The notes beneath the pieces were generated by a model, which did not search any database, was not told where the DNA came from, and was given only the letters and a program-made list of their open reading frames with translations. This document shows, one piece after another, positions 1-60,286 of a DNA stretch of 64,000 bases; position 1 is the stretch's first letter; each line of letters starts with the position of its first letter. The DNA is from a virus (Duplodnaviria; Heunggongvirae; Uroviricota; Caudoviricetes), in IMG/VR virus record IMGVR_UViG_2718217789_000006; one strand, given 5' to 3'. Both the position numbers and the translations under genes were made by a program.

Positions 1-332
1 TGACGGGGACGAAAGAAGAACTGGCGCTCCGTGTGGCAGAGCTGGAAGAGGAGCTTGATGACACGGATGAAACTGCCGGTCAGGACACCCCTCTCAGCCG
101 GGAAAATGTGCTGACCGGACATGAAAATGAGGTGGGATCAGCGCAGCCGGATACCGTGATTCTGGATACGTCTGAACTGGTCACGGTCGTGGCACTGGTG
201 AAGCTGCATACTGATGCACTTCACGTCACGCGGGATGAACCTGTGGCATTTGTGCTGCCGGGAACGGCGTTTCGTGTCTCTGCCGGTGTGGCAGCCGAAA
301 TGACAGAGCGCGGCCTGGCCAGAATGCAATAA
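1..332 (+). CDS. FI: Lambda FI-like DNA packaging protein, C-terminal part (5' end outside window)
   Basis: Reading frame open from the window edge; translation ...VAELEEELDDTDETAGQDTPLSRENVLTGHENEV...MTERGLARMQ matches lambda gpFI C-terminus as recalled; lies directly upstream of FII. Confidence 0.8.
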   Translation, partial: TGTKEELALRVAELEEELDDTDETAGQDTPLSRENVLTGHENEVGSAQPDTVILDTSELVTVVALVKLHTDALHVTRDEPVAFVLPGTAFRVSAGVAAEMTERGLARMQ

Positions 333-343
333 CGGGAGGCGCT

Positions 344-697
344 GTGGCTGATTTCGATAACCTGTTCGATGCTGCCATTGCCCGCGCCGATGAAACGATA
401 CGCGGGTACATGGGAACGTCAGCCACCATGACATCCGGTGAGCGGTCCGGCGCAGTAATACGTGGTGTTTTTGATGACCCTGAAAATATCAGCTATGCCG
501 GACAGGGCGTGCGCGTTGAAGGCTCCAGCCCGTCCCTGTTTGTCCGGACTGATGATGTGCGGCAACTGCGGCGTGGTGACACGCTGACCATTAACGGCGA
601 GATGTTCTGGGTGGACCGTGTTTCTCCGGATGACGGAGGGAGTTGTTATCTCTGGCTCAACCGTGGGCAACCACCGGCAGTTAACCGGCGACGATAA
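344..697 (+). CDS. FII: Head-tail joining protein FII
   Basis: 117 aa, MADFDNLFDAAIARADETIRGYMGTSATMTSGE...SPDDGGSCYLWL, near-identical to lambda gpFII as recalled. Confidence 0.9.
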   Translation: MADFDNLFDAAIARADETIRGYMGTSATMTSGERSGAVIRGVFDDPENISYAGQGVRVEGSSPSLFVRTDDVRQLRRGDTLTINGEMFWVDRVSPDDGGSCYLWLNRGQPPAVNRRR

Positions 698-711
698 ACG
701 CAGGGTGAATT

Positions 712-1245
712 ATGGCGATAAAAGGGCTTGATCAGGCGATTGAAAATCTGAGCCGGGTTCGTAAAAACGCCATTCCGGCGGCTTCAGCAATGGCCATTAA
801 CCGCGTGGCCACAACGGCGATTAATCAGTCTTCATCACAGGTTGCCCGGGAGACAAAGGTACGCCGGAAACTGGTAAAGGAACGGTCCAGACTGAAACGG
901 GCCACGGTCAGAAATCCGAATGCCAGAATTATCGTTAAACGCGGTGATCTCCCTGTGATTAAGCTGGGGATCAGGATGCTGGGCCGTCGTCCGGACAGCA
1001 TACTTAAAGCTGGTCAGCATCGGTATCAGCGGGCATTTATCCAGCGATTAAAAAATGGTCGCTGGCATGTCATGCAGCGTGTGGCCGGGAAAAACCGTTA
1101 CCCCATTGATGTGGTGAAAATCCCGATGGCGGCCCCACTGAAACAGGCGTTTGATGAGAATATTGACCGTATCCGGCGTGAACGTCTGCCCGGAGAACTG
1201 GCATACGCGCTGAAACAACAACTTAGGATTGCGATAAAACGATGA
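712..1245 (+). CDS. Z: Minor tail protein Z
   Basis: 177 aa, MAIKGLDQAIENLSRV...NGRWHVMQRVAGKNRYPIDVVKIPMA, lambda gpZ-like; lambda gene order. Confidence 0.9.
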   Translation: MAIKGLDQAIENLSRVRKNAIPAASAMAINRVATTAINQSSSQVARETKVRRKLVKERSRLKRATVRNPNARIIVKRGDLPVIKLGIRMLGRRPDSILKAGQHRYQRAFIQRLKNGRWHVMQRVAGKNRYPIDVVKIPMAAPLKQAFDENIDRIRRERLPGELAYALKQQLRIAIKR

Positions 1246-1637
1246 AACATACTGATATCCGTGCGGCAGTGCTGGATGCACTGGAGCTGCATGAACACGG
1301 GGCGACGCTGTTTGATGGTCGCCCCGTTGTTTTTGACGAAGAGGATTTTCCGGCCGTCGCGGTTTATCTGACGGATGCAGAGTATACCGGTGAAGAGCTG
1401 GATGCAGATACCTGGCGGGCCACACTGCATATTGAGGTGTTTTTACCGGCACAGGTACCGGATTCGGAGCTTGATCAGTGGATGGAAAGCCGGATTTATC
1501 CGGCGGTGACTGCGATCCCGGCACTGGCAGACCTGATTACGACGATGGTTACGCAGGGCTATGAGTATCGTCGTGATGACGATATGGCGTTATGGAGTTC
1601 TGCGGATCTGACTTATTCCATTACATACGAGATGTGA
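1242..1637 (+). CDS. U: Minor tail protein U (tail terminator)
   Basis: 131 aa, ...[23 protein letters not shown]...[16 protein letters not shown]..., lambda gpU-like; 4-nt overlap with Z. Confidence 0.9.
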
Positions 1638-1644
1638 GGACGAT

Positions 1645-2397
1645 ATGGCAACACCAAATCCCCTTGAGCCGGTAAAAGGTGCCGGTACCACTCTGTGGGT
1701 TTACAACGGCAAGGGTGATGCTTATGCAAACCCGTTGTCAGACGATGACTGGCAGCGACTGGCTAAGGTGAAGGATCTGACGCCGGGCGAGATGACGGCA
1801 GAACCCTACGATGATAACTACCTGGATGATGAAGACGCGGACTGGACCGCGACCGGGCAGGGGCAGAAGTCTGCAGGAGATACCAGTTTTACGCTGGCCT
1901 GGAAACCGGGAGAAGAAGGTCAGAAAGGGCTTATAGGCTGGTTTGAAAGCGGGGATGTGCGGGCCTATAAAATCCGTTTCCCAAATGGCACGGTGGATGT
2001 GTTCCGTGGCTGGGTCAGCAGTATCGGTAAGGCCGTGACGGCGAAAGAAGTGATCACCCGCACGGTGAAAGTCACTAACGTGGGCAAACCTTCCGTGGCG
2101 GAAGAACGCAGCGAAATTACGCCGGCCACTGCAATTAAGGTGACACCGACATCCGGTACGGTGGCAAAAGGGAAAACAACCACCCTGACTGTTTCTTTTG
2201 AGCCGGAAAGTGCAACCGACAAGACGTTCAGAGCGGTTTCCGCCGATCCGTCGAAAGCCACCATTAGTGTGAAAGATATGACAATTACGGTAAACGGCGT
2301 GGCGACAGGTAAGGTGCAGATCCCTGTGGTGAGCGGAAATGGTCAGTTCGCCGCAGTGGCTGAAGTCACCGTTACTGAAGCGGGCGCTGCAGGGTAA
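1645..2397 (+). CDS. V: Major tail tube protein V
   Basis: 250 aa, ...[39 protein letters not shown]...[25 protein letters not shown]..., lambda gpV-like with C-terminal Ig-like region. Confidence 0.95.
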
Positions 2398-2410
2398 ACG
2401 GAGGTAATAC

Positions 2411-2833
2411 ATGTTTCTGAAAACAGAACAATTTGAATATAACGGTGTGTCCGTCACGCTTTCCGAATTGTCTGCGCTGCAGCGGTTTGATTATATAAAG
2501 TTTGTTTCAGACGCAGAACAACAGGAGACAACGAAGCATGATGTCGTGCACATTAACCAGCGATATCTGGAAACGGCATCCCTGCTTGTGGCGATGTCGC
2601 TATGGCATTCCCATTCCCTCAAAGGCACTCTGGCCTCTCCGGAGACAGAGATGCAGCAGATCCGCCGTGAAGTGATGCTGGGATGGCCTGCTGATGCACT
2701 GAATCAGGCAACGAACCGGGTGCTTTATCTTTCAGGTATGCTGGATAACCGGCACGATGCCGATCCTGAACAAACCGGTAAAGCAGAAGCGACTGAGTCG
2801 GTAACATCAAAAAAGCATTCGAAGGCGAGCTGA
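2411..2833 (+). CDS. G: Tail assembly chaperone G
   Basis: 140 aa, MFLKTEQFEYNGVSVTLSELSALQR..., lambda gpG-like; ends just after a slippery heptamer. Confidence 0.9.
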   Translation: MFLKTEQFEYNGVSVTLSELSALQRFDYIKFVSDAEQQETTKHDVVHINQRYLETASLLVAMSLWHSHSLKGTLASPETEMQQIRREVMLGWPADALNQATNRVLYLSGMLDNRHDADPEQTGKAEATESVTSKKHSKAS

Positions 2834-3273
2834 ACTTTGTCCTGAAACTGGCGCGAGAGATGGGGAGACCCGACTGGCGCGCCATGCTTGCCGGGATGAC
2901 ATCCACCGAATATGCCGACTGGCGACGTTTTTACTGCACGCATTATTTTCAGGATACCCAACTGGACGCTCATTTTTCCGGGCTGATGTACGCCGTACTC
3001 AGCCTGTTTTTTGGCGATCCGGATATGCATCCGGCGGATTTCAGTCTGCTTGCTCCAGCGTGTGAGGAAGAGCAGACGGAGATGCCGGACGAGGAAGAAA
3101 TGCTGATGCAGAAAGCGACAGGAGTTGCCGGAGGCGTCCGGTTCGGAGGGGACGGAGGGCGCGATATTTCACCTTCTGCGGATGTGGTGGATGTCAGCGA
3201 GGATGATGTTGCATTAATGATGGCTTCAGCGGGGATTTCCGGAGGTGTGAGATATGTCCCAGCCAGCGGGTGA
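2411..3273 (+). CDS. T: Tail assembly protein G-T, product of programmed -1 ribosomal frameshift
   Basis: T frame (ending 3273) is the -1 frame relative to G and is open upstream of its first ATG through the heptamer A_AAA_AAG at 2809..2815; -1 reading gives ...KKAFEGELNFVLKLAREMGRPDWRAMLAGMTSTEYADWRRFY... Confidence 0.75.
2809..2815 (+). promoter_or_regulatory. Slippery heptamer A_AAA_AAG for the G to G-T -1 frameshift
   Basis: In-frame X_XXY_YYZ motif in the G reading frame at the G/T overlap; lambda uses G_GGA_AAG at the same position. Confidence 0.7.
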
Positions 3274-5866
3274 TCTGGTTATTGATTTGAGTCTGGATGC
3301 GGCCCGGTTTGATGAACAGATGGCCCGGGTACGCCGTCATTTTTCCAGTCTGGAGGCGGATGCCAGAAAAACCGCCAGTACTGTTGAACAGGGGCTGAGC
3401 CGACAGGCGCTGGCGGCACAAAAAGCCGGGATATCAGTCGGACAGTATAAGGCTGCCATGCGCACACTGCCCGCACAGTTCACGGATATTGTCACTCAGC
3501 TTGCCGGTGGTCAGAATCCCTTCCTTATCATGCTGCAGCAGGGGGGGCAGATCAGCGATTCATTCGGTGGACCGCTCAGCCTGCTTACCCTGCTGAAGGA
3601 GGAACTTCTCGGGATCAGGGATGCCTCTGAATCATCAGAGGAGTCGCTGTCAGATACGGCAAATGCACTGGCTGAAAATGCCCGGAATGCCGGTGAGCTG
3701 GGACGATTTATGTCGGTGGCCCGTGTGGCGGCAGGTGGCGGGGTTGCCGTACTGGCCGCGCTTGCTGCCGCCGCCTGGCAGGCAGAGCAGGCTGACCGGG
3801 CCTTATTGCGTTCACTGATCCTGACCGGAGGGGCGGCTGCCACCACAACGGCAGAATTGTGGAAAATGGCCGGGGTGATCAGCGATGAAGCCGGTGGTGG
3901 TATCAGACAGGCGGCAGAAAATCTGGCCCGTCTGGCAGAAAGCGGGAAATATACCGCCGGGCAGCTACGGATCATGGGGGAAACCTCTCAGAGATGGCTG
4001 CAGACGGTGGGGGACGATGCCGGGAAGGTGGAAAAAGCCTTTGAAGGGATTGCAGCAGATCTGGTGAAGGCGCTGGCCTCCCTGAATCAGCAGTATAACT
4101 TCCTGAGCGTTTCCCAGTTACGCCATATTGATGAGCTTGAGCGCACGAAAGGTAAACAGGTTGCGGTGACGGAGGCGATGTCCCTGTTTGCGGATGTCAT
4201 GAATGCACGTCTGGAGCAACTTGATAAAGCGGCCACGCCGGTGGAAAAAATCTGGGACGATGTTAAAACCTGGACTTCTGACGCATGGGCATGGATAGGT
4301 GATCATACACTGGGGGCACTCAGTCTGATCACTGACGTGGTGGCCGGAACCGTTGAACAAGTGAAGCTGCTGCTTGTGCAGGGGGATCTGGCGCTGGCTG
4401 AATTTATTCAGTCAGCCTGGGAAACGACAAAGAATGTGCCCGGCGTTGGTGCGTTGTTTGGTGAACTGGCAGAAGAGAACCGCGTATTTATTGAGAAAAC
4501 AAAACGCGATGAACTGGCGCTGAGAAAATCCATTGCGGAACGGGATGCGCGTATACGCCAGGGGGAAATGGGGTACATCAACCGCTCGCGTGCAACAGGC
4601 GTCAGCAAAGGTCCGGGGCAGCAGGAAGCCGTCAGCCGTCTGGCTGAAGAGCTGACAGGTAAAAAGCATACATCACCGAAAACGCGCTCTGCCGGGGAGA
4701 GGGAAGAGGAGCAGGCAAGAGAGGCTCTGCTTGCCCTTGAAGCTGAGCTCAGGACGCTGGAAAAACACAGCGGTGCGAATGAGAAAATCAGCCGGCAGCG
4801 CCGTGATTTATGGAAGGCGGAAAGTCAGTATGCGGTCCTGAAAGAGGCTGCCACGAAACGACAGTTATCTGAGCAGGAAAAATCCCTGCTGGCGCATAAA
4901 GACGAGACGCTGGAGTACAAACGCCAGCTGGCTGAGCTGGGCGACAAGGTTGAATACCAGAAACGCCTGAATGAGCTGGCACAGCAGGCGGTGCGGTTTG
5001 AAGAGCAGCAGAGCGCGAAGCAGGCCGCCATCAGCGCAAAAGCCCGCGGTCTCACTGACCGTCAGGCGCAGCGGGAGTCTGAAGCGCAGCGTCTTCGGGA
5101 CGTGTACGGTGATAATCCGGCTGCGCTGGCGAAGGCCACATCGGCACTGAAGAACACCAGGTCTGCGGAGGAGCAGCTTCGTGGAAGCTGGATGGCCGGG
5201 CTGAAGTCCGGCTGGGGCGAGTGGGCGGAAAGTGCGACGGACAGTTTTTCGCAGGTTAAAAGTGCTGCCACGCAGACCTTTGACGGTATTGCACAGAATA
5301 TGGCGGCGATGCTGACCGGTGCAGAGGCAGACTGGCGGGGATTCACCCGTTCGGTGCTGTCCATGATGACAGAAATCCTGCTTAAACAGGCCATGGTGGG
5401 CATTGTCGGGCGTATCGGCAGCGCCATTGGCGGTGCTTTCGGTGGTGGTGCATCTGCTTCCTCGGGGACGGCCATTCAGGCTGCGGCGGCGAACTTCCAT
5501 TTCGCGACCGGAGGATTTACGGGGACGGGCGGCAAATATGAGCCTGCGGGGATAGTTCACCGCGGGGAGTTTGTTTTCACGAAAGAGGCAACCAGCCGGA
5601 TAGGTGTGGGGAATCTTTACCGTCTGATGCGCGGCTATGCGGAAGGTGGTTATGTGGGTGGTGCCGGAAGTCCGGCGCAGATGCGGCGGGCGGAAGGTAT
5701 TAATTTTAATCAGAACAATCACGTGGTGATTCAGAACGACGGCACCAACGGACAGGCGGGGCCGCAGCTGATGAAGGCGGTGTATGACATGGCCCGCAAG
5801 GGGGCGCAGGATGAGCTCCGGCTGCAGTTGCGTGATGGCGGTATGTTATCGGGGAGCGGGCGATGA
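3254..5866 (+). CDS. H: Tail tape measure protein H
   Basis: 870 aa; N- and C-terminal regions (…LSRQALAAQKAGISVGQYKAAMRTLPAQFTD…; …AMVGIVGRIGSAIGG…HFATGGFTGTGGKYEPAGIVHRGEFVFTKEATSRIG…) match lambda gpH as recalled; GGAGG RBS; overlaps end of T. Confidence 0.9.
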   Translation: MSQPAGDLVIDLSLDAARFDEQMARVRRHFSSLEADARKTASTVEQGLSRQALAAQKAGISVGQYKAAMRTLPAQFTDIVTQLAGGQNPFLIMLQQGGQISDSFGGPLSLLTLLKEELLGIRDASESSEESLSDTANALAENARNAGELGRFMSVARVAAGGGVAVLAALAAAAWQAEQADRALLRSLILTGGAAATTTAELWKMAGVISDEAGGGIRQAAENLARLAESGKYTAGQLRIMGETSQRWLQTVGDDAGKVEKAFEGIAADLVKALASLNQQYNFLSVSQLRHIDELERTKGKQVAVTEAMSLFADVMNARLEQLDKAATPVEKIWDDVKTWTSDAWAWIGDHTLGALSLITDVVAGTVEQVKLLLVQGDLALAEFIQSAWETTKNVPGVGALFGELAEENRVFIEKTKRDELALRKSIAERDARIRQGEMGYINRSRATGVSKGPGQQEAVSRLAEELTGKKHTSPKTRSAGEREEEQAREALLALEAELRTLEKHSGANEKISRQRRDLWKAESQYAVLKEAATKRQLSEQEKSLLAHKDETLEYKRQLAELGDKVEYQKRLNELAQQAVRFEEQQSAKQAAISAKARGLTDRQAQRESEAQRLRDVYGDNPAALAKATSALKNTRSAEEQLRGSWMAGLKSGWGEWAESATDSFSQVKSAATQTFDGIAQNMAAMLTGAEADWRGFTRSVLSMMTEILLKQAMVGIVGRIGSAIGGAFGGGASASSGTAIQAAAANFHFATGGFTGTGGKYEPAGIVHRGEFVFTKEATSRIGVGNLYRLMRGYAEGGYVGGAGSPAQMRRAEGINFNQNNHVVIQNDGTNGQAGPQLMKAVYDMARKGAQDELRLQLRDGGMLSGSGR

Positions 5867-6192
5867 AAACCTTTCGCTGGAAAGTGAAGCCGGATATGGA
5901 GGTGAACTCGCAGCCATCGGTGCGTGAAGTGCGTTTTGGTGACGGGTACTCACAGCGTATGGCGGCAGGGCTGAATGCTGACCTGAAAACATACCGTGTG
6001 ACGCTTTCCGTGACCCGGGAGGAGGCCCGGCATCTGGAAGCGTTCCTGGCAGAGCACGGAGGCTGGAAGGCATTTTTGTGGAAGCCACCCTATGCATACC
6101 GGCAGATAAAGGTGACCTGTGCCGGGTGGTCTGCGCGGGTCGGGATGTTGCGCGTTGAGTTCAGCGCGGAGTTTAAGCAGGTGGTGAACTGA
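5863..6192 (+). CDS. M: Minor tail protein M
   Basis: 109 aa, MKTFRWKVKP...YRVTLSV...KVTCAGWSARVGMLRVEFSAEFKQVVN, lambda gpM-like. Confidence 0.9.
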   Translation: MKTFRWKVKPDMEVNSQPSVREVRFGDGYSQRMAAGLNADLKTYRVTLSVTREEARHLEAFLAEHGGWKAFLWKPPYAYRQIKVTCAGWSARVGMLRVEFSAEFKQVVN

Positions 6193-6890
6193 TGCAGGAT
6201 ATTCACGGGGAAAGCCTGATCGAGTCGGTTAAATCAGAGCAGTCACCGCGGGTGGTGCTCTGGGAAATCGACCTGACGGTGCAGGGTGGTGAGCGGTATT
6301 TTTTCTGCAATGAGCTGAATGAAAAAGGGGAGGCGGTTACCTGGCAGGGGCGGGAATATCAGGCATACCCGATTGACGGCAGCGGTTTTGAGATGAACGG
6401 GAAGGGCAGCAGTGCCCGCCCGTCGCTGACGGTGTCGAATCTGTTCGGTCTGGTCACCGGAATGGCGGAGGACCTGCAGAGCCTGGTGGGGGCCACGGTG
6501 GTCCGCCGCCGGGTGTATGCCCGTTTTCTGGATGCGGTGAATTTTGTGGCGGGCAATCCGGAAGCGGACCCGGAGCAGGAGCTGAGCGACCGCTGGGTGG
6601 TGGAGCAGATGTCAGAGCTGACGGCCATGACAGCCTCGTTTGTGCTGGCAACACCGACGGAGACGGACGGAGCGCTGTTTCCCGGTCGCATTATGCTGGC
6701 GAATACCTGTATGTGGGATTACCGGGGAGATGAATGCGGGTATAACGGTCCTGCGGTGGCGGATGAGTTCGACAACCCCACCACGGATATCCGTAAGGAC
6801 AGATGCAGCAAGTGCATGCGCGGGTGTGAGATGCGCGGCATGGTGGCTAATTTTGGCGGTTTCCTTTCCATCAATAAACTTTCGCAGTAA
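6192..6890 (+). CDS. L: Minor tail protein L
   Basis: 232 aa, ...VVLWEIDLT...GERYFFCNE...FPGRIMLANTCMWDYRGDECGY...FGGFLSINKLSQ, lambda gpL-like. Confidence 0.9.
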   Translation: MQDIHGESLIESVKSEQSPRVVLWEIDLTVQGGERYFFCNELNEKGEAVTWQGREYQAYPIDGSGFEMNGKGSSARPSLTVSNLFGLVTGMAEDLQSLVGATVVRRRVYARFLDAVNFVAGNPEADPEQELSDRWVVEQMSELTAMTASFVLATPTETDGALFPGRIMLANTCMWDYRGDECGYNGPAVADEFDNPTTDIRKDRCSKCMRGCEMRGMVANFGGFLSINKLSQ

Positions 6891-6900
6891 ATCCTGTTTT

Positions 6901-7644
6901 ATGACACAGACTGAATCAGCGATTCTGGTGCATGCCCGGCGGTGTGCGCCTGCGGAGTCGTGCGGCTTCGTGATAGGCACCCCGGAGGGCGAACGGTACC
7001 AGCCCTGCGTGAATATCTCCGCAGAGCCGGAGGCGTATTTTCGTATTGCGCCGGAAGACTGGCTGCAGGCAGAGATGCAGGGGGAGATTGTGGCGCTGGT
7101 TCACAGCCACCCTGGTGGTCTGCCCTGGCTGAGCGAGGCCGACCGGCGGCTGCAGATAAAGAGTGCCCTGCCCTGGTGGCTGGTCTGCCGGGGGGAAATT
7201 CATAAATTCCGCTGTGTGCCGCACCTGACCGGGCGTCGTTTTGAGCACGGGGTGACGGACTGTTACACCCTGTTCCGGGATGCATACCATCTGGCGGGGA
7301 TAACGCTGCCGGATTTTGAGCGTGAGGATGACTGGTGGCGCAACGGTCAGAACCTTTACCTGGACAATATGGCGGCGACTGGTTTTTACCGGGTGCCCCT
7401 GTCCTCTGCACAGGCGGGCGATATCCTGCTGTGCTGCTTTGGCGCATCGGTGGCCAATCATGCCGCCATATACTGCGGCAACGGTGAACTGCTTCACCAT
7501 CTGCCTGAACAACTGAGTAAACGGGAGAGGTATTCTGAAAAATGGCAACGACGAACGCATTCTGTCTGGCGTCACCGCCACTGGCACGCATCTGCCTTCA
7601 CGGGGATTTGCAACGATTTGGCCGCCGCCTCAGCCTGTACGTGA
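6901..7644 (+). CDS. K: Tail assembly protein K (JAB/MPN plus NlpC/P60-like domains)
   Basis: Starts at ATG 6901 (MTQTESAILVHARRCAPAESCGFV...HSHPGG...); the ORF-track start at 6640 is an upstream in-frame extension overlapping L and is rejected. Confidence 0.9.
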   Translation: MTQTESAILVHARRCAPAESCGFVIGTPEGERYQPCVNISAEPEAYFRIAPEDWLQAEMQGEIVALVHSHPGGLPWLSEADRRLQIKSALPWWLVCRGEIHKFRCVPHLTGRRFEHGVTDCYTLFRDAYHLAGITLPDFEREDDWWRNGQNLYLDNMAATGFYRVPLSSAQAGDILLCCFGASVANHAAIYCGNGELLHHLPEQLSKRERYSEKWQRRTHSVWRHRHWHASAFTGICNDLAAASACT

Positions 7645-8219
7645 ACACGGCAGCGGAAGCCATCCGTGCCCTGTCGCTGCAGATGCCGGGATTCCGCCGT
7701 CAGATGAACGAAGGCTGGTACCAGATACGTATTCGCGGTGAGGACACGGCACCGGAGGCGGTGTACGCCCGTCTTCACGAACCTCTGGGTGAGGGGGCGG
7801 TCATCCATATTGTGCCGCGACTGGCCGGAGCCGGAAAGGGCGGACTGCAGATTGTGCTGGGGGCAGCAGCCATCGTGGGCTCTTTCTTCACCGCCGGCGC
7901 AACGATGGCGTTGTGGGGCGCAGCCCTGAGTGCCGGAGGGCTGACTGCCACCACGATGCTGTTCTCACTGGGTGCCAGCATGATACTGGGCGGTGTGGCC
8001 CAGATGCTGGCACCGAAGGCAAAAACACCGGAGTACAGGGCGACGGATAACGGTAAACAGAACACGTATTTTTCGTCACTGGATAACATGATTGCCCAGG
8101 GGAACCCGATGCCGGTGCCTTATGGTGAAATGCTGGTTGGTTCACGACGGATATCCCAGGACATCAGCACCCGTGATGAGGGCGGAGACGGGAAAGTGGT
8201 GGTTATCGGGCGGGGATGA
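7542..8219 (+). CDS. I: Tail assembly protein I
   Basis: 225 aa, ...ICLHGDLQRFGRR...AVIHIVPRLAGAGKGG...GKQNTYFSSLDNMIAQGNPMPVPYGEM..., lambda gpI-like; overlaps 3' end of K. Confidence 0.85.
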   Translation: MATTNAFCLASPPLARICLHGDLQRFGRRLSLYVNTAAEAIRALSLQMPGFRRQMNEGWYQIRIRGEDTAPEAVYARLHEPLGEGAVIHIVPRLAGAGKGGLQIVLGAAAIVGSFFTAGATMALWGAALSAGGLTATTMLFSLGASMILGGVAQMLAPKAKTPEYRATDNGKQNTYFSSLDNMIAQGNPMPVPYGEMLVGSRRISQDISTRDEGGDGKVVVIGRG

Positions 8220-8264
8220 AAATAAAAAAATCCCGCAGAGTTAGCGGAGCTGCGGGAGAGAACG

Positions 8265-8384
8265 ATGAAGATTAACGTTATGGAGTTATTTTTCAGGCAT
8301 CAAAAAAGTAATGCAGCGTCATTATTGCGGCTACAGGCAATTGCCGGAAATGTGAAGAGTTTCAGAAATTTTATTCCGTCATGA
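8265..8384 (+). CDS. Hypothetical 39-aa protein in an AT-rich insert between I and J
   Basis: ATG with GGGAGAG upstream; MKINVMELFFRHQKSNAASLLRLQAIAGNVKSFRNFIPS; bracketed by two GC-rich hairpins; no homology recognised. Confidence 0.25.
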   Translation: MKINVMELFFRHQKSNAASLLRLQAIAGNVKSFRNFIPS

Positions 8385-8459
8385 CACAGGCACCCTCCGG
8401 GGTGCCTGTTGTTTTCTGGCATAAACAGATTCAGACATCAGACAGGAGAGGGGGACAGA

Positions 8460-18499: not shown

Positions 18500-20896
18500 T
18501 TAAGAATCAGCCTGACTCGGGATCAGTTTTTGCCAGATAACTGAAACGTATTTTGCCTGGTAACGGGCGTCATCAAGTGCATTATGGCGCTCACCTTCGA
18601 ATGGAATAGCCGTTCTGGCATCGAAGTCTATGGCTTTCCCCAGCTCAACGATTGTGCGCACATCGCGATCGTTGTAGTAACGCCACGGGCAGGGGATCCC
18701 CTGCCGTTCGTATGAACGGCGCAAAATCGTGTTGTCGAAGTTGGCTCCATTTCCCCAGACCTGAACAAAGAATTCACCGGAGTTTTCGTCGATAAATTCC
18801 CGCAATTGTAACAGTGCATCATCTAACGGGATTTCATCGGTCATAATGGCAGATTGCGCTTCGCGTGATTGCTTAAGCCACCATTTAATGGTGTCCCGAT
18901 CAATGACTCCGCCAGCAGTTTCCAGATCGATAGTCTTACTAAATTCCGGTCCCATATCTCCGGTTTGCGGATCGAAAAATATTGCACCTATTGAGATGAT
19001 CGGGGCATCAGGATTTTTTCCCATGGTTTCAAGGTCGATCATTAGATGGTCACACGTCCTGCTGGTGGATGTGATAACGTGATGACCGTTCACCTTAATT
19101 GAGTGATCTGCCGTCTCGCCAGTTTCATTATCGCTATCGTGATGCTGATTGCCGCCAGTGTTCTCCTTGTGTGGATGTTCAGCGCCTTCCATTTCCTCCG
19201 GATCATCTTCCTGAACTTCAACCAGGTTCTTGTCATCGAATGTTTCCTGGTATGTTGCGTCGCCCATCACCGCGCCACAATCAGGGCAGTTGCCGCCGCC
19301 GGTCTGACCGCAGGTGGTGCAGATCTTTTCCGGTTCCTGTTGCACTACTGGTTCAGGTTGTTTCGTTTCTGGCTGATTCTGGTACACAGAATCGCGGGTC
19401 TGGATCCCCTTAATCCATTTCGGATCATTCGGGTCGCTAATCCCTTCAACAAATTCTCCGCGAGAGGCAGCCAGTAATTTGTCTGCATCGACAGGATTTT
19501 GGGGCGGAATGTTTTTCCGGGCTTCATGGAGTTCTGCCCGCAGTTTCTGATATTTCGCATCAACAGAATTTACCTGTGACTGAGCATCCAGCGGCTGCGT
19601 GTCCTGATGATGTTCAGTTGCATCCGGTTCCACTGTTTCAGCCGTTGCCTGTTCATCTGCCATTGCGCAAGATGGTTGCGGTTTTTCTTCATCATTTTCT
19701 TCTTCTGTTTCCTGCTTAGCAGCCAGTTCGCGGTTAACTTCTTCCAGGATATCTTTTTCCGGTGTATGTCGTGCAGCAGTGAGAGTTTCCTTGCTGGGGT
19801 TCTCGTGATCAGTCTCCGTTAAGTAGGCGTTGATATACCCCTGAAGGCGTCCCGGGTAGTGATAAAACTCAGGGTGAGCGCTCCGGATAAGTGCAAAAAT
19901 AGCGGCGCGGGAATAGTCCAGAATACCCGGGGTTGCGCGAAGTGCTGCGGACCATTCTTTGAACGGACTTTCTCTTTTCAGGACGATTTCTTTTGCGCGA
20001 CGATAAACGCTGCCCGGAATTTCATAAATATTAAAATCCATCGGAAGTGTGGCTGCTGCAATCTCCACATCCAGCGTATCGAAGGTGTGTACTAAATTCG
20101 GATTGCGATCGGTTTTGTTCCCGCCACCGGCATTTGCACCGGAAGCCGTACGGGTGATACGCGAAACACGATTTCCTTTCATCCACTCTTTTGTCAGCAG
20201 ACCCCGATCAGTGTAGTCAGCGTCCAGGTATGCCTCGAAAAAAGCAGTTATCAGTCCCAGGTCTGAATTACCGGGATTAGGGAAAACTTTGTCAGTGTCG
20301 CGTGCCAGTTTATGAAGGTCGCGAATCTCCAGCGGGTCGAGCAGCTTTGTGTTGTGGGAAATGGCCAGGGCAGTAACAGCCGGCAGTTCTTCCGCCCGTG
20401 CTATATGTAATGCCTGAAGTTCTTCCCGTGCAACGTGCGTTACTGGTTTTTCGCTGCCGTGTTGCGCAAGCCAGCGAATGGGCAGCTCCTGACCAGAAAC
20501 CGGCAGGAGCATATTCTCCTCAATCTCCGTCATGTCTTCGCCGTTGACGTTGGTATTGTCAGTACTGGCTGGTTTCTCCTGCACGGAGGGAGAGGGCGCG
20601 ATAAATACCATTGTAATGCCATCTTCCCCGCCTTTTTCGTATCGGTTGCAGAATTCGGTATCAAACACGCCTTCAGGTGGAAGGTCATTCACAACGGGTA
20701 AATGGACGCGAACGGGTTTTTTAAAGTCGTCTTCATCATAATCGTTGTCATCCATTGCGGTAATGCAGCGGGAGATGGCAACAGATAATTTTTTTGCTGT
20801 AGTCCAGTAAAAACCACCTTTAATTCCCAGACGTTTTCTGACTTTGTCATTTTTTGCTTCGCAATATAGCGCAAATTCTTCTTTATCAGTGCTCAT
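18500..20896 (-). CDS. Putative phage exonuclease with C-terminal DnaQ-like (DEDDh) 3'-5' exonuclease domain
   Basis: 798 aa; C-terminal ...[26 protein letters not shown]...[15 protein letters not shown]...[12 protein letters not shown]... fits Exo I/II/III motifs; central CxxC...CxxC zinc-ribbon ([21 protein letters not shown]) and acidic linker. Confidence 0.7.
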
Positions 20897-21011: not shown

Positions 21012-21179
21012 TCAGGTACAGCGATACTTTTTTTTTACCGGGAGGCATTCACCAGAAATTTTTTGCTCGTCTCTTGCCTGGAGGCAGGATTCTTTACTGG
21101 CATAAATTCCGGTAATCACATTCTGTGATTCACCCGTTATAAGAAAAACCGTCATCATCAGTGCAAATGCTGAAGTCAT
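21012..21179 (-). CDS. YdfD-like small protein with hydrophobic N-terminus
   Basis: 55 aa (below ORF-track cutoff), MTSAFALMMTVFLITGESQNVITG...; start overlaps the dicB stop (ATGA); position matches ydfD after dicB in Qin. Confidence 0.45.
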   Translation of the reverse strand: MTSAFALMMTVFLITGESQNVITGIYASKESCLQARDEQKISGECLPVKKKYRCT

Positions 21180-21364
21180 TGACGTTCTCCGAAAATACCA
21201 AGTTCAAGAAGAGCAATTCGGGAAAGTATGGAATTATCATTGAGCAGATAAGGCTCATATTTCCTCATATTAATGGCATCTTCAGTAAACTCCCGGTTAC
21301 TGAGCAGAACACCAATATCAAAACAACCTTCAGACGTATTAACGTTTGGTAATAACGTTTCCAT
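21176..21364 (-). CDS. dicB: DicB-like cell division inhibitor
   Basis: 62 aa, METLLPNVNTSEGCFDIGVLLSNREFTEDAIN...; same length and N-terminus as K-12 DicB as recalled. Confidence 0.7.
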   Translation of the reverse strand: METLLPNVNTSEGCFDIGVLLSNREFTEDAINMRKYEPYLLNDNSILSRIALLELGIFGERQ

Positions 21365-21542: not shown

Positions 21543-21582
21543 AAAAAGGGCGGATATCCGTTTCCGCCGAATCACCAGAAAA
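21543..21582 (-). ncRNA. dicF: DicF-like small RNA (variant)
   Basis: Minus-strand UUUCUGGUGAUUCGGCGGAAACGGAUAUCCGCCCUUUUU: DicF-type 5' seed (UUUCUGGUGA) plus terminator hairpin and U-run, followed by UAAAGUGAAUUUUGUGAUG as downstream of K-12 dicF (recalled); lies between ydfC-like gene and dicB. Confidence 0.5.
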
Positions 21583-27414: not shown

Positions 27415-28101
27415 ATGACCCCAATAAAAATATTTATGACTATTGCTGATTTCAAACGGCCTAAATTGGAGCTCCCAAACGGGGCAAACAAACTACTACT
27501 GCACTCTTGCTGTGCTCCATGTTCCGGTGAAGTGATGGAGGCGCTTCAGGCCTCGGGAATCGACTACACCATCTTTTTCTACAACCCGAACATTCATCCT
27601 CAGAAAGAGTATTTAATTCGTAAGGATGAAAATATTCGCTTTGCTGAACAACACGGCGTGCCGTTTATCGATGCTGATTACGACACCGACAACTGGTTTG
27701 AACGTGCCAAAGGAATGGAATGGGAGCCTGAGAGGGGGATCCGTTGTACCATGTGTTTTGACATGCGTTTTGAGCGGACAGCGTTGTACGCTGCTGAAAA
27801 TGGTTTCAGTGTGATCAGCAGTTCACTGGGCATTTCACGCTGGAAAAATATGCAGCAGGTTAACGAGTGTGGGCGGCGAGCTGTTGCGCATTATCCGGGT
27901 ATGGTGTACTGGGATTATAACTGGCGCAAGCAGGGCGGCTCGTCCCGTATGATTGAAATCAGCAAGCGCGAAAAATTCTATCAGCAGGAATATTGTGGCT
28001 GTGTGTATTCTCTGCGCGATACCAATCTACACCGCAAATCTCAGGGACGCCCTCTTATCAAAATTGGCCAACTCCACTACGGAAAAGAAGAGAAGGAGTG
28101 A
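27415..28101 (+). CDS. QueH-like protein (DUF208, epoxyqueuosine reductase family)
   Basis: 228 aa; [11 protein letters not shown]...FFYNPNIHP...QEYCGCVYS motifs characteristic of QueH/DUF208 as recalled. Confidence 0.55.
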
Positions 28102-46911: not shown

Positions 46912-47535
46912 ATGGCAATAAAAGGTCTGGCGCAGGCCATGAAAAATCTGGATGCAATTGATCGCCGTGCCGTTCCCCGGGCCTCTGCCACGACACTGAA
47001 CCGCGTGGCGGGGGCCATTATTGCGAAAACGGCCTCTTCAGTTGCCAGGGAGCTGGCCGTTCCCCGTCGTCTTATCCGTGCCCGCATCCGGTTAAGTCCG
47101 GCACGACCGGATAAGGTTTACGCAAAGGTTTACATCAATACCGGCAACCTGCCCGCCATCAAACTGGGGGAGGCCCGCGTTCGACTTTCCCGCAGAAAAC
47201 GGAGAAAGAAAGGACAGCGTGCGGCCCTGAAAGGGGGCGGCAGTGTGCTGATTGTGGGGAAAAGACGGATCCCGGACGCCTTTATCACCCGGCTGGCTAA
47301 CGGACGCTGGCATGTGATGCAGCGTATGCCGTGGGCATCATCATCCACCGGCGCGGACAGCAAAGGGAGGCCGAAACGCCACCGTCTGCCGATCGAAGTG
47401 GTGAAGATTACGACTGCCGGACCGCTGGCAGAAACCTTTGAACGTGAACGGGACCGGATGTACCGGGAAAAATTACCGGCGCAGATGATGAAAGCCATGA
47501 CGCATCAGTTACGCCTGGTGCTGAAAAGAAAATGA
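46912..47535 (+). CDS. Z: Minor tail protein Z (divergent from the prophage A copy)
   Basis: MAIKGLAQAMKNLD...NGRWHVMQRMPWASS...; AGGAA RBS. Confidence 0.85.
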   Translation: MAIKGLAQAMKNLDAIDRRAVPRASATTLNRVAGAIIAKTASSVARELAVPRRLIRARIRLSPARPDKVYAKVYINTGNLPAIKLGEARVRLSRRKRRKKGQRAALKGGGSVLIVGKRRIPDAFITRLANGRWHVMQRMPWASSSTGADSKGRPKRHRLPIEVVKITTAGPLAETFERERDRMYREKLPAQMMKAMTHQLRLVLKRK

Positions 47536-47547
47536 CTGGGAGGGTGT

Positions 47548-47946
47548 ATGAAACACCGTGAAATACGGGCGGCAGTTCTGTCTGCCCTGAAAGAAAATAT
47601 TTCTGAGAGGGTGAGCTGGTTTGACGGTCGCCCGGTTTTTATTGATGAACAGGAACTGCCTGCTGTTGCTGTTTACCTGACAGATGCGTCTGCTGCTGAC
47701 GAGTTCGTTGATGAGGGAACCTGGGAGGCGACACTGCATATTGAGGTTTTTCTCAGGGCAAAAGAACCGGACTCGGCACTGGATATGTGGATGGAAGAAA
47801 AAATTCTTCCTGCGCTGGAGGCAGTTCCCGGGCTCAGTGCATTACTGCTGAAGATGAATCTTCAGGGGTATGACTACCGCCGGGATGATGAGTTTATGAT
47901 GTGGGGATCGGCAGATCTCCTGTGGAAAATTACCTACGAGATGTGA
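47548..47946 (+). CDS. U: Minor tail protein U
   Basis: 132 aa, ...[17 protein letters not shown]...HIEVFL...; differs from the prophage A copy except at the 3' end. Confidence 0.85.
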
Positions 47947-47953
47947 GGACGAT

Positions 47954-48706
47954 ATGGCAACACCAAATCCCCTTGAGCCGGTAAAAGGTGCCGGTACCAC
48001 TCTGTGGGTTTACAACGGCAAGGGTGATGCTTATGCAAACCCGTTGTCAGACGATGACTGGCAGCGACTGGCTAAGGTGAAGGATCTGACGCCGGGCGAG
48101 ATGACGGCAGAACCCTACGATGATAACTACCTGGATGATGAAGACGCGGACTGGACCGCGACCGGGCAGGGGCAGAAGTCTGCAGGAGATACCAGTTTTA
48201 CGCTGGCCTGGAAACCGGGAGAAGAAGGTCAGAAAGGGCTTATAGGCTGGTTTGAAAGCGGGGATGTGCGGGCCTATAAAATCCGTTTCCCAAATGGCAC
48301 GGTGGATGTGTTCCGTGGCTGGGTCAGCAGTATCGGTAAGGCCGTGACGGCGAAAGAAGTGATCACCCGCACGGTGAAAGTCACTAACGTGGGCAAACCT
48401 TCCGTGGCGGAAGAACGCAGCGAAATTACGCCGGCCACTGCAATTAAGGTGACACCGACATCCGGTACGGTGGCAAAAGGGAAAACAACCACCCTGACGG
48501 TTTCTTTTGAGCCGGAAAGTGCAACCGACAAGACGTTCAGAGCGGTTTCCGCCGATCCGTCGAAAGCCACCATTAGTGTGAAAGATATGACAATTACGGT
48601 AAACGGCGTGGCGACAGGTAAGGTGCAGATCCCTGTGGTGAGCGGAAATGGTCAGTTCGCCGCAGTGGCTGAAGTCACCGTTACTGAAGCGGGCGCTGCA
48701 GGGTAA
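47954..48706 (+). CDS. V: Major tail tube protein V (identical to the prophage A copy)
   Basis: 250 aa, protein identical to 1645..2397. Confidence 0.95.
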
Positions 48707-48719
48707 ACGGAGGTAATAC

Positions 48720-49142
48720 ATGTTTCTGAAAACAGAACAATTTGAATATAACGGTGTGTCCGTCACGCTTTCCGAATTGTCTGCGCTGCAGCGGTTTGAT
48801 TATATAAAGTTTGTTTCAGACGCAGAACAACAGGAGACAACGAAGCATGATGTCGTGCACATTAACCAGCGATATCTGGAAACGGCATCCCTGCTTGTGG
48901 CGATGTCGCTATGGCATTCCCATTCCCTCAAAGGCACTCTGGCCTCTCCGGAGACAGAGATGCAGCAGATCCGCCGTGAAGTGATGCTGGGATGGCCTGC
49001 TGATGCACTGAATCAGGCAACGAACCGGGTGCTTTATCTTTCAGGTATGCTGGATAACCGGCACGATGCCGATCCTGAACCAACCGGGAAAACAGAAGCG
49101 ACTGAGCCGGTAACATCAAAAAAGCATTCGAAGGCGAGCTGA
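48720..49142 (+). CDS. G: Tail assembly chaperone G
   Basis: 140 aa, near-identical to 2411..2833. Confidence 0.9.
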   Translation: MFLKTEQFEYNGVSVTLSELSALQRFDYIKFVSDAEQQETTKHDVVHINQRYLETASLLVAMSLWHSHSLKGTLASPETEMQQIRREVMLGWPADALNQATNRVLYLSGMLDNRHDADPEPTGKTEATEPVTSKKHSKAS

Positions 49143-49477
49143 ACTTTGTCCTGAAACTGGCGCGTGAGATGGGGAGAGCCGACTGGCGCGCCATGCTTGC
49201 CGGGATGACATCCACCGAATATGCCGACTGGCGACGTTTTTACTGCACGCATTATTTTCAGGATACCCAGCTGGATATGCATTTTTCCGGGCTGATGTAC
49301 GCCGTACTCAGCCTGTTTTTTTGCGATCCGGATATGCATCCGGCGGATTTCAGCCTGTTCGCTCCGGAGGCAGAGGAAGGACAGGCGGAGACGCCGGACG
49401 AAAATGATGTACTGATGCAGAAGGCGGCGGGCCTCGCCGGTGGAGTCCGTTTCGGGGAGGAGGGAAGGAGGTTGTGA
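48720..49477 (+). CDS. T: Tail assembly protein G-T via -1 frameshift at A_AAA_AAG (49118..49124)
   Basis: Same slippery heptamer and frame relationship as copy A; the T C-terminus diverges and is shorter than in copy A. Confidence 0.7.
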
Positions 49478-49520
49478 CAGTTATTGATGGTATCAGAGGA
49501 CATTTCAGGAGGTGACCACG

Positions 49521-52166
49521 ATGGCAGGTAATTTTGCCGATCTGACAGCCGTGCTGACACTGGATTCTGCCCGTTTTTCTGAAGAGGCAGCGCGGGTAAA
49601 AAAAGAGCTGGGTGAAACCAGTGCGCTTGCTGATTTGATGTCCGGGAAAGTCAGTCAGTCTTTCAGAAAACAGGCTGATGCTGCTGAGCAGAGTCTGAGC
49701 CGACAGGCGCTGGCGGCACAAAAAGCCGGGATATCAGTCGGACAGTATAAGGCTGCCATGCGCACACTGCCCGCACAGTTCACGGATATTGTCACTCAGC
49801 TTGCCGGTGGTCAGAATCCCTTCCTTATCATGCTGCAGCAGGGGGGGCAGATCAGCGATTCATTCGGTGGACCGCTCAGCCTGCTTACCCTGCTGAAGGA
49901 GGAACTTCTCGGGATCAGGGATGCCTCTGAATCATCAGAGGAGTCGCTGTCAGATACGGCAAATGCACTGGCTGAAAATGCCCGGAATGCCGGTGAGCTG
50001 GGACGATTTATGTCGGTGGCCCGTGTGGCGGCAGGTGGCGGGGTTGCCGTACTGGCCGCGCTTGCTGCCGCCGCCTGGCAGGCAGAGCAGGCTGACCGGG
50101 CCTTATTGCGTTCACTGATCCTGACCGGAGGGGCGGCTGCCACCACAACGGCAGAATTGTGGAAAATGGCCGGGGTGATCAGCGATGAAGCCGGTGGTGG
50201 TATCAGACAGGCGGCAGAAAATCTGGCCCGTCTGGCAGAAAGCGGGAAATATACCGCCGGGCAGCTACGGATCATGGGGGAAACCTCTCAGAGATGGCTG
50301 CAGACGGTGGGGGACGATGCCGGGAAGGTGGAAAAAGCCTTTGAAGGGATTGCAGCAGATCCGGTGAAGGCGCTGGCCTCCCTGAATCAGCAGTATAACT
50401 TCCTGAGCGTTTCCCAGTTACGCCATATTGATGAGCTTGAGCGCACGAAAGGTAAACAGGCTGCGGTGACGGAGGCGATGTCCCTGTTTGCGGATGTCAT
50501 GAATGCACGTCTGGAGCAACTTGATAAAGCGGCCACGCCGGTGGAAAAAATCTGGGACGATGTTAAAACCTGGACTTCTGACGCATGGGCATGGATAGGT
50601 GATCATACACTGGGGGCACTCAGTCTGATCACTGACGTGGTGGCCGGAACCGTTGAACAGGTGAAGCTGCTGCTTGTGCAGGGGGATCTGGCGCTGGCTG
50701 AATTTATTCAGTCAGCCTGGGAAACGACAAAGAATGTGCCCGGCGTTGGTGCGTTGTTTGGTGAACTGGCAGAAGAGAACCGCGTATTTATTGAGAAAAC
50801 AAAACGCGATGAACTGGCGCTGAGAAAATCCATTGCGGAACGGGATGCGCGTATACGCCAGGGGGAAATGGGGTACATCAACCGCTCGCGTGCAACAGGC
50901 GTCAGCAAAGGTCCTGGGCAGCAGGAAGCCGTCAGCCGTCTGGCTGAAGAGCTGACAGGTAAAAAGTATACATCACCGAAAACGCGCTCTGCCGGGGAGA
51001 GGGAAGAGGAGCAGGCAAGAGAGGCTCTGCTTGCCCTTGAAGCTGAGCTCAGGACGCTGGAAAAACACAGCGGTGCGAATGAGAAAATTAGCCGGCAGCG
51101 CCGTGATTTATGGAAGGCGGAAAGTCAGTATGCGGTCCTGAAAGAGGCTGCCACGAAACGGCAGTTATCCGGGCAGGAAAAATCCCTGCTGGCCCATGAG
51201 AAAGAGACGCTGGAGTACAAACGCCAGCTGGCTGAGCTGGGCGACAAGGTTGAATACCAGAAACGCCTGAATGAGCTGGCACAGCAGGCGGTGCGGTTTG
51301 AAGAGCAGCAGAGCGCGAAGCAGGCCGCCATCAGCGCAAAAGCCCGCGGTCTCACTGACCGTCAGGCGCAGCGGGAGTCTGAAGCGCAGCGTCTTCGGGA
51401 CGTGTACGGTGATAATCCGCAGGCGCTGGCCCGGGTCACCGGGGCACTGAAACAGACATGGGCGGATGAAGACATGCTGCGCGGTGACTGGCTGGCCGGG
51501 CTGAAGTCCGGCTGGGGGGAGTGGGCGGAAAGTGCGACGGACAGTTTTTCGCAGGTTAAAAGTGCTGCCACGCAGACCTTTGACGGTATTGCACAGAATA
51601 TGGCGGCGATGCTGACCGGTGCAGAGGCAGACTGGCGGGGATTCACCCGTTCGGTGCTGTCCATGATGACAGAAATCCTGCTTAAACAGGCCATGGTGGG
51701 CATTGTCGGGCGTATCGGCAGCGCCATTGGCGGTGCTTTCGGTGGTGGTGCATCTGCTTCCTCGGGGACGGCCATTGAGGCTGCGGCGGCGAACTTCCAT
51801 TTCGCGACCGGAGGATTTACGGGGACGGGCGGCAAATATGAGCCTGCGGGGATAGTTCACCGCGGGGAGTTTGTTTTCACGAAAGAGGCAACCAGCCGGA
51901 TAGGTGTGGGGAATCTTTACCGTCTGATGCGCGGCTATGCGGAAGGTGGTTATGTGGGTGGTGCCGGAAGTCCGGCGCAGATGCGGCGGGCGGAAGGTAT
52001 TAATTTTAATCAGAACAATCACGTGGTGATTCAGAACGACGGTATCAACGGACAGGCGGGGCCGCAGCTGATGAAGGCGGTGTATGACATGGCCCGCAAG
52101 GGGGCGCAGGATGAGCTCCGGCTGCAGTTGCGTGATGGCGGTATGTTATCAGGGAGCGGGCGATGA
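49521..52166 (+). CDS. H: Tail tape measure protein H
   Basis: ATG 49521 with AGGAGGTG RBS; N-terminal ~60 aa differ from copy A, remainder near-identical. Confidence 0.9.
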   Translation: MAGNFADLTAVLTLDSARFSEEAARVKKELGETSALADLMSGKVSQSFRKQADAAEQSLSRQALAAQKAGISVGQYKAAMRTLPAQFTDIVTQLAGGQNPFLIMLQQGGQISDSFGGPLSLLTLLKEELLGIRDASESSEESLSDTANALAENARNAGELGRFMSVARVAAGGGVAVLAALAAAAWQAEQADRALLRSLILTGGAAATTTAELWKMAGVISDEAGGGIRQAAENLARLAESGKYTAGQLRIMGETSQRWLQTVGDDAGKVEKAFEGIAADPVKALASLNQQYNFLSVSQLRHIDELERTKGKQAAVTEAMSLFADVMNARLEQLDKAATPVEKIWDDVKTWTSDAWAWIGDHTLGALSLITDVVAGTVEQVKLLLVQGDLALAEFIQSAWETTKNVPGVGALFGELAEENRVFIEKTKRDELALRKSIAERDARIRQGEMGYINRSRATGVSKGPGQQEAVSRLAEELTGKKYTSPKTRSAGEREEEQAREALLALEAELRTLEKHSGANEKISRQRRDLWKAESQYAVLKEAATKRQLSGQEKSLLAHEKETLEYKRQLAELGDKVEYQKRLNELAQQAVRFEEQQSAKQAAISAKARGLTDRQAQRESEAQRLRDVYGDNPQALARVTGALKQTWADEDMLRGDWLAGLKSGWGEWAESATDSFSQVKSAATQTFDGIAQNMAAMLTGAEADWRGFTRSVLSMMTEILLKQAMVGIVGRIGSAIGGAFGGGASASSGTAIEAAAANFHFATGGFTGTGGKYEPAGIVHRGEFVFTKEATSRIGVGNLYRLMRGYAEGGYVGGAGSPAQMRRAEGINFNQNNHVVIQNDGINGQAGPQLMKAVYDMARKGAQDELRLQLRDGGMLSGSGR

Positions 52167-53190: not shown

Positions 53191-53200
53191 ATCCTGTTTT

Positions 53201-54519: not shown

Positions 54520-54759
54520 AAATAAAAAAATCCCGCAGAGTTAGCGGAGCTGCGGGAGAGAACGATGAAGATTAACGTTATGGAGTTATTTTTCAGGCAT
54601 CAAAAAAGTAATGCAGCGTCATTATTGCGGCTACAGGCAATTGCCGGAAATGTGAAGAGTTTCAGAAATTTTATTCCGTCATGACACAGGCACCCTCCGG
54701 GGTGCCTGTTGTTTTCTGGCATAAACAGATTCAGACATCAGACAGGAGAGGGGGACAGA

Positions 54760-58240: not shown

Positions 58241-58307
58241 ATTTTATAACCCATATACGGGCGCCAGAAATGGCGCCTTTTTTATTGCAGAAAAGCGAGA
58301 GGTAATT

Positions 58308-60285: not shown

Positions 60286-60286
60286 C

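Follow-up and report, generated by a model that had tools for sequence, protein, structure and literature searches.

Results

A RecE-type protein with a DEDDh nuclease domain

The 64,000-nucleotide stretch of virus record IMGVR_UViG_2718217789_000006 analysed here (the window) covers two lambdoid prophages lying in tandem on an E. coli O157:H7-type chromosome. Our subject is a gene of the second prophage, complete and present in a single copy in the window, that encodes a 798-residue protein and has GAGG 8-11 nt 5′ of its ATG (Table 1). Its open reading frame and its place in the early-left region are as an earlier sequence-only reading had them; it is the last gene of the early-left operon, ahead of xis and int. 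That reading divided the product into an N-terminal domain without a known function, an acidic low-complexity linker, a CxxC...CxxC motif and a C-terminal DEDDh 3′-5′ exonuclease domain. All four features are present, but the first three together correspond to the N-terminal 600 residues of RecE.

BLASTP aligns residues 58-600 with residues 50-591 of K-12 RecE (reference sequence taken from the Rac prophage) at 64% identity over 552 aligned positions, a stretch that takes in the folded core of the N-terminus as well as the two acidic linkers, the conserved helix with its DPNDPKW segment and the Cys4 motif. Beyond RecE residue 591, where its PD-(D/E)XK nuclease starts, BLASTP finds no similarity to the 798-residue protein. 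The NCBIfam model for exodeoxyribonuclease VIII (NF007259) matches residues 1-600 at model positions 1-602 of 877, scoring 991.1 bits and so falling below its equivalog cutoff of 1269, and Pfam PF06630 (Exonuc_VIII) matches residues 57-189 with an E value of 7e-34. Because of the 64% identity over residues 58-600 and the NCBIfam match to model positions 1-602, we regard the protein as derived from RecE, with its catalytic domain exchanged for another. In a phmmer search with RecE residues 595-866, DEDDh-type proteins were not matched. By sequence, then, the RecE PD-(D/E)XK 5′-3′ nuclease is absent and a DEDDh domain stands in its place, so that a scaffold of the RecE type here bears a different nuclease head.

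Table 1. The gene, the segments of its product and its operon neighbours (positions in the window; aa, residues of the 798-residue protein; pLDDT, predicted local distance difference test score; AF2, AlphaFold2)
Feature	Position	Strand	Basis or remarks
Complete coding sequence, 798 aa + stop, ATG start	18500..20896	(-)	Open reading frame list; stop codon 18500-18502
aa 1-57, N-terminal leader, part of first alpha/beta subdomain	20726..20896	(-)	BLASTP to RecE begins at residue 58; pLDDT 86-97
aa 58-360, RecE-type folded core, three subdomains, includes Exonuc_VIII (aa 57-189)	19817..20725	(-)	
aa 361-437, first acidic, predicted-disordered linker	19586..19816	(-)	Composition; pLDDT <50; homologous to RecE 352-426
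aa 438-525, conserved middle segment	19322..19585	(-)	BLASTP; AF2; alignment consensus
aa 526-540, putative zinc ribbon, C-x2-C-x7-C-x2-C	19277..19321	(-)	C526, C529, C537, C540
aa 541-615, second acidic disordered linker and fusion junction	19052..19276	(-)	Composition; pLDDT 27-33; RecE similarity ends at aa 600
aa 616-798, DEDDh (DnaQ-like) 3′-5′ exonuclease domain, PF16473	18503..19051	(-)	Pfam, phmmer, AF2 and Foldseek
Catalytic codons	D621 19034-19036; E623 19028-19030; D721 18734-18736; H771 18584-18586; D776 18569-18571	(-)	
dicB	21176-21364	(-)	Directly upstream, same leftward operon; Pfam, RefSeq annotation, K-12 Qin gene order
ydfD-like DUF1482 gene	21012-21179	(-)	Directly upstream, same leftward operon; Pfam, RefSeq annotation
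Excisionase gene (DUF1233)	18176..18427	(-)	Directly downstream of the 798-aa gene; Pfam, RefSeq annotation
Tyrosine integrase, left end of second prophage	16861..18156	(-)	Pfam, RefSeq annotation

The N-terminal 600 residues

The first 360 residues are folded in the AlphaFold2 model (mean pLDDT 85) and form three subdomains. A structural search with this region against solved and viral predicted structures found no detectable similarity, and this part has no known fold or function; it is nonetheless the N-terminus of RecE, and the function of the RecE N-terminal 600 residues was still called unknown in a 2023 review (PMC11611040). The first 57 residues are unlike residues 1-49 of K-12 RecE and occur in representatives with either nuclease type. 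A reported "miniRecE E121-T222" (PMC12825301) was considered as an activity of the RecE N-terminus and was not used, as K-12 RecE has P and L at positions 121 and 222; the numbering agrees with a truncation of the RecE587 type, in which the segment is E706-T807 and belongs to the nuclease domain.

Residues 361-615 are mostly predicted to be disordered (pLDDT <50) and include two acidic stretches, residues 361-437 (24 D+E versus 6 K+R, isoelectric point 4.2) and residues 546-615 (18 D+E versus 4 K+R), where the sequence-only reading had one linker. Between them lies a middle segment that is almost identical to RecE, with an ISDPNDPKW motif and a predicted helix at residues 438-461 (pLDDT 66-79; helix 78-101 in an AlphaFold2 model of residues 361-798). 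It leads into the four cysteines of the putative zinc ribbon, a segment that is modelled with low confidence. K-12 RecE carries the same Cys4 motif, as CNACGQTGGDNCPDCG. Only E. coli-like family members retain the four cysteines, which divergent homologues lack, so the putative zinc ribbon is a lineage feature and does not define the family.

The C-terminal exonuclease domain

The C-terminal domain matches Pfam PF16473 (Rv2179c-like) over the full length of the profile (positions 2-177 of 177; residues 617-788) with an E value of 1.9e-67 and 226.8 bits against a cutoff of 27. Its AlphaFold2 model (residues 616-795) has pLDDT values of 75-94 and a DnaQ-like fold; the best Foldseek match in the PDB is T4 DexA (E = 8e-11), followed by RNase T, the DnaQ domain, Orn and REXO2, all with probability 1.00 and target-normalised template modelling (TM) scores of 0.63-0.74. 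DexA (8KEL/8KEN) is also the only sequence match of the domain in the PDB (phmmer E = 1.7e-6). Aligned with DexA, the domain has all five DEDDh residues, the absence of which would have spoken against a catalytic domain: D621 and E623 of the Exo I D-x-E motif, D721 of Exo II, and H771 and D776 of the Exo III H-x4-D motif, corresponding to DexA D7, E9, D119, H186 and D191. PMC12153337 gives the catalytic residues of DexA and prints the glutamate as E12. The five columns are invariant in an alignment with DexA, an EcD-like protein (described below) and six stand-alone homologues. Profile, residues and fold together place the 798-residue protein fully within the DEDDh family PF16473.

The same five residues are conserved in all complete sequences of the fused family but one. 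In that representative, P0141, E623 is replaced by K and D721 by A; these substitutions suggest that it may be a catalytically dead copy in which the scaffold is retained.

DexA shares about 25% identity with the domain and is otherwise built differently. At 227 residues it consists of one domain, comes from a virulent phage, has extra loops and switches between tetramer and dimer (PMC12153337), whereas the homologous domain here is the C-terminus of a 798-residue protein of a temperate phage. The founder of the Pfam family, M. tuberculosis Rv2179c, is a cellular exoribonuclease; the domain matches the family profile in full length, but phmmer against PDB sequences did not retrieve Rv2179c at E<0.01, so that relationship is at the level of the family profile only.

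The closest characterised homologue is EcD of E. coli (HAK9828821.1), which shares the DEDDh family and 38% identity over residues 619-791 (E = 2e-37). T4 DexA and EcD are reported to recognise DNA containing 5-hydroxymethylcytosine (5hmC); in the same report EcD digests T4 DNA and not unmodified DNA, and plasmid-borne EcD protects against T4, which the authors call "HREX" (PMC12153337, Nucleic Acids Research 2025). We recovered the EcD sequence by way of the primers given in PMC12153337, as a 189-residue protein on viral contigs that begins MIDTET. This EcD-like protein has Ala at position 78, as in PMC12153337, and the 3′ end of its DNA fits the reverse primer except for one extra A in the primer as printed. 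EcD, too, is found on prophage-like contigs with an integrase nearby, but it stands alone, at about 189 residues, without a RecE-type scaffold.

At the position of DexA W152, the residue proposed to stack on 5hmC, the EcD-like protein and most stand-alone homologues also have Trp. The 798-residue protein has Tyr741 there, and the column holds Y, C, V, W, R or H across the fused family. The equivalent of DexA D169 aligns to an A/K-rich LGKAI segment with no clear acidic match, in an alignment that is uncertain at 25% identity. Since W152 is replaced by Tyr741 and the column is variable, the HREX specificity is not transferable to the 798-residue protein.

A widespread fusion without a neighbouring annealing protein

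A homologous-protein search with the 798-residue protein returned only near-identical E. coli copies. We therefore describe the family from a search of residues 1-610 against 1.84 billion representative proteins, which gave 270 clusters at E<=1e-3 that were classified by phmmer. The RecE-type N-terminal core is joined to the RecE nuclease in about 20 representatives and to a DEDDh domain in about 16; in others the C-terminal region has no Pfam match at E<=0.001. Shigella phage 75/02 Stx has an N-terminal-only protein of 682 residues, and gam, recT and exo follow downstream as genes of their own. Because the N-terminal region is found with the RecE nuclease, with a DEDDh domain, with other C-termini or alone, we take it to be an autonomous module.

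Two further C-terminal classes were seen on RecE-type cores outside the window. One, in P0130, P0166, P0200, P0201, P0208 and P0261, is a conserved domain of about 270 residues with the motif DGEAxKKSLTDAxKKALSxLGFxADIxxGLYD. Five of its six members match Pfam Rad52_Rad22 below threshold, reaching at best E = 0.0025 and 18.2 bits where the gathering score is 20.3, and hhalign against P22 Erf and lambda Bet found nothing; proteins of this class may be RecE scaffolds that carry an annealase. The other (P0193, P0243 and 16 others) matches only phrog_26058, a family of unknown function, and had no match in a Pfam scan.

A set of species-representative genomes yielded 80 loci, comprising 19 intact fused genes, 3 degraded copies and 58 stand-alone DEDDh genes. 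The intact fused genes occur in Escherichia, Klebsiella, Kluyvera, Citrobacter, Enterobacter, Pluralibacter, Buttiauxella and Phytobacter, and every one of the 19 lies directly upstream of int or xis-int. The fusion is old and has been maintained across genera. No RecT, Bet, Erf, lambda-type Exo or Gam was found in the flanks of any of these 19 loci. Viral contigs give the same picture, with RecT, Bet or Erf in the flanks of none of 54 contigs with the DEDDh fusion and RecT at 85 of 88 loci with a RecE-type nuclease, although these contigs are near-identical E. coli prophages and the counts are not independent events; the species-level set is for that reason the more independent evidence.

The stand-alone genes mostly encode proteins of about 185-200 residues and many are in the same position ahead of int; Erf is nearby in 4 of the 58. 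Lambdoid examples such as that of PhiR47_1 (XSB42806.1, labelled "exodeoxyribonuclease VIII") are 56-60% identical to residues 616-798. Like the 798-residue gene, many of them close the leftward operon and have xis and int directly downstream, but they lack the 600-residue N-terminal region, and some accompany an Erf-type recombination module.

The protein itself is well represented in databases. It is identical (100%) to RefSeq WP_072643151.1 ("exonuclease"), and the gene has 100% DNA matches, with annotation, in many O157:H7 chromosomes. Near-identical copies are labelled "3′-5′ exoribonuclease" or "exodeoxyribonuclease VIII" in NCBI and phage records, PHROGs assigns the protein to "exonuclease" families, and the two-domain architecture is already present in precomputed Pfam domain lists for near-identical proteins. 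At the level of megablast, the 600 bp coding for the DEDDh domain are found in 4069 of 5426 complete E. coli genomes (~75%), in up to 7 copies per genome. The gene is thus extremely frequent in E. coli prophages and annotated already, and it is a genuine if rather unremarkable mosaic; we found no paper on a chimeric RecE-N/DEDDh protein in the literature searched.

The prophage and its leftward operon

The insertion site of the second prophage is ydfJ, and a truncated form of this gene marks the prophage end (62717-64000); ydfJ is the attachment site of the K-12 cryptic prophage Qin. Its leftward gene order is also that of Qin: repressor, DUF1391/ydfA, ydfB, ydfC, a DicF-like RNA, dicB, DUF1482/ydfD, the 798-residue gene, xis and int (DUF, domain of unknown function). 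A weak scan for sigma-70-like consensus sites found no promoter-like site directly upstream of the 798-residue gene. No annealing-protein gene (RecT, Bet, Erf) is annotated anywhere in the second prophage. Because the ydfJ site and the dicA-ydfABC-dicF-dicB-ydfD order are the same, the gene had been expected to be the intact form of the Qin pseudogene ydfE; this was ruled out, as the two have no BLASTP similarity.

The ydfD-like gene is annotated as frameshifted by RefSeq in identical O157:H7 sequence, and YdfD of K-12 has the annotation of a lysis protein. A variant of the DicF small RNA (21543-21581, minus strand) is located between the ydfC-like gene and dicB and aligns to K-12 dicF with internal deletions of 17 nt and 2 nt. 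It retains the 5′ segment TTTCTGGTGA and has a new terminator hairpin, GGCGGAAACGGATATCCGCC, followed by a T-run. Rfam at its gathering threshold reports no DicF in the window.

Discussion

Fusion of the RecE N-terminus to a nuclease of another family raises the question of what such a protein does in a prophage. We consider it probable, from the sequence and the structural models, that it is a Mg-dependent 3′-5′ exonuclease tethered by a RecE-type scaffold, made early-left on derepression, and that it is not part of a RecET- or Red-type recombinase. After derepression, the gene would be transcribed as the last of a dicB-type leftward operon, judging by its position. The conserved residues and the fold suggest that the C-terminal domain would remove nucleotides from free 3′ ends by two-metal-ion catalysis through D621, E623, D721, H771 and D776, while the RecE-type N-terminal region presumably supplies targeting or assembly, as it may do for RecE. 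The protein would then be an accessory end-processing or degradative exonuclease, acting most plausibly on DNA, with the DNA ends of competitor phages, the host or the phage itself as candidate targets. DNA as the substrate, the activity, the timing of expression and the role of the scaffold are what we infer.

The separation from two-component recombinases of the RecET or Red type follows from the predicted polarity, which is opposite to that of RecE, and from the lack of an adjacent annealing-protein gene. The sequence-only reading had likewise denied a lambda Exo/Bet or RecE/RecT arrangement, and there is indeed no such pair in the prophage, but the protein is not unrelated to RecE, as its first 600 residues are RecE-type. 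The Rac recE gene is also late in its early-left operon, near xis and int. RecE, however, has a PD-(D/E)XK 5′-3′ exonuclease for double-stranded DNA (residues ~595-866) where the 798-residue protein has a DEDDh 3′-5′ domain, and the 798-residue gene has no adjacent recT and is followed directly by xis and int; the product also differs in its first 57 residues and scores below the equivalog cutoff. As the RecE nuclease and a RecT partner are absent and the expected polarity is opposite, the gene is not to be counted as a RecET-type module. The label "exodeoxyribonuclease VIII" in phage records can be corrected on the same grounds, for a protein without the RecE nuclease domain and the RecT partner.

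Several points weigh against the reading as a DNA exonuclease outside RecET- and Red-type recombination. PF16473 takes its name from an exoribonuclease, and "3′-5′ exoribonuclease" is a frequent label in NCBI, which leaves RNA as a possible substrate. The screen for annealing proteins took in RecT, Bet and Erf and left out Sak, Sak4 and gp2.5-type proteins, the viral contigs among the loci are largely copies of one another, and other prophages in O157:H7 could supply annealing partners in trans. The promoter scan is weak, so independent expression in the lysogen is possible, and a targeting or assembly role for the N-terminal region is pure inference.

The nearest characterised relative would suggest a prophage-borne defence nuclease of the HREX type, which would selectively degrade the hypermodified (5hmC) DNA of invading T-even phages and be helped by the RecE scaffold to reach DNA ends. 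EcD, at 38% identity to residues 619-791, is reported to be active on T4 DNA and protective against T4, and the genera of bacterial DexA homologues in the same study (Escherichia, Citrobacter, Klebsiella) match the distribution found here (PMC12153337). We nevertheless regard a function of this kind as unlikely for the 798-residue protein, in which the 5hmC-stacking Trp is Tyr741 in a variable column and the counterpart of D169 shows no clear conservation. Defence genes expressed in the lysogen are also not usually placed as this gene is, distally in a repressed leftward operon and without its own promoter-like site. PADLOC gave no match, with a library that predates HREX, and the HREX claim comes from one study that used overexpression. 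A 3′-5′ exoribonuclease, trimming or degrading phage or host transcripts, small RNAs such as a co-transcribed DicF precursor, or short oligoribonucleotides, we judge equally improbable. Its appeal is the name of PF16473, taken from the exoribonuclease Rv2179c, the presence of RNase T, Orn and REXO2 among the structural neighbours, the name "3′-5′ exoribonuclease" on many NCBI copies and the DicF-like small RNA in the same operon; set against these, the closest characterised relatives by both sequence and structure, T4 DexA and EcD, are DNA exonucleases, and the scaffold derives from a DNA recombination nuclease. The DEDDh enzymes RNase T and Orn take both DNA and RNA as substrates, so the fold alone does not decide the matter.

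The sequence-only reading had suggested a recombination or anti-defence nuclease. Such a protein could work with annealing partners supplied in trans by other prophages or with host RecA, or it could destroy defence DNA such as retron multicopy single-stranded DNA (msDNA), and we hold this to be the least probable of the explanations weighed here. The 600 RecE-type residues would fit it, as would the finding that full-length RecE improves linear-linear recombination over the nuclease domain alone (PMC11611040) and the preprint finding that msDNA is degraded, and retron-Sen2 triggered, by Rac RecE (10.1101/2020.06.22.160242). Prophages are numerous in O157:H7 genomes, and E. coli genomes carry up to 7 copies of the DEDDh-coding DNA. 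But a 3′-5′ polarity removes the 3′ tails used by RecT, Bet and RecA and does not create them, and the fused loci have no adjacent annealing-protein gene while loci with the RecE nuclease almost always have one. As to anti-defence, EcD, which is the one close relative of the nuclease domain that has been characterised, is reported as a defence and not an anti-defence nuclease (PMC12153337).

Taken alone, the protein matters little, being already in RefSeq with its architecture recorded and its gene in most E. coli genomes. Its interest is as a natural domain-swap experiment on the RecE N-terminal 600 residues, in which the same scaffold carries mechanistically opposite nucleases, and this argues for an autonomous targeting or assembly module. 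A wider version, which we put forward as speculation with little probability, is that temperate phages use the RecE N-terminus as a module of general use that takes interchangeable effector heads to DNA ends or recombination intermediates, and that the DEDDh chimera is a nuclease for inter-phage warfare or anti-defence that takes its specificity from the scaffold and not from 5hmC-reading residues. Were that so, the heads would be 5′-3′ PD-(D/E)XK, 3′-5′ DEDDh, possibly a Rad52-like annealase, or none. The reported restriction of T4 by a 38%-identical stand-alone homologue (2025) makes a defence role testable in this gene family.

Other features of the window

The window has near-duplicate tail-gene modules, at positions 1-14000 and about 47000-60300, which are alike in open reading frame sizes, order and GC profile. 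Both prophages carry type III secretion effector cargo at their ends (14138-16279 and 60986-61972, both on the plus strand): three DUF1076 (NleG-type) effector genes follow the tail fibres of prophage 1, and nleC follows those of prophage 2. The early-right region of the second prophage (27415-30296, plus strand) is annotated by RefSeq with genes for a QueH-like epoxyqueuosine reductase, a Dcm-type cytosine methyltransferase and an NgoMIV-family type II restriction endonuclease. An Rfam match to the sok antitoxin RNA (28169-28349; 61 bits against a threshold of 59) overlaps the start of the methyltransferase open reading frame, and in the second prophage's late-regulatory region Rfam matches the small RNA STnc100 strongly, at 148 bits (34708-34908, plus strand).

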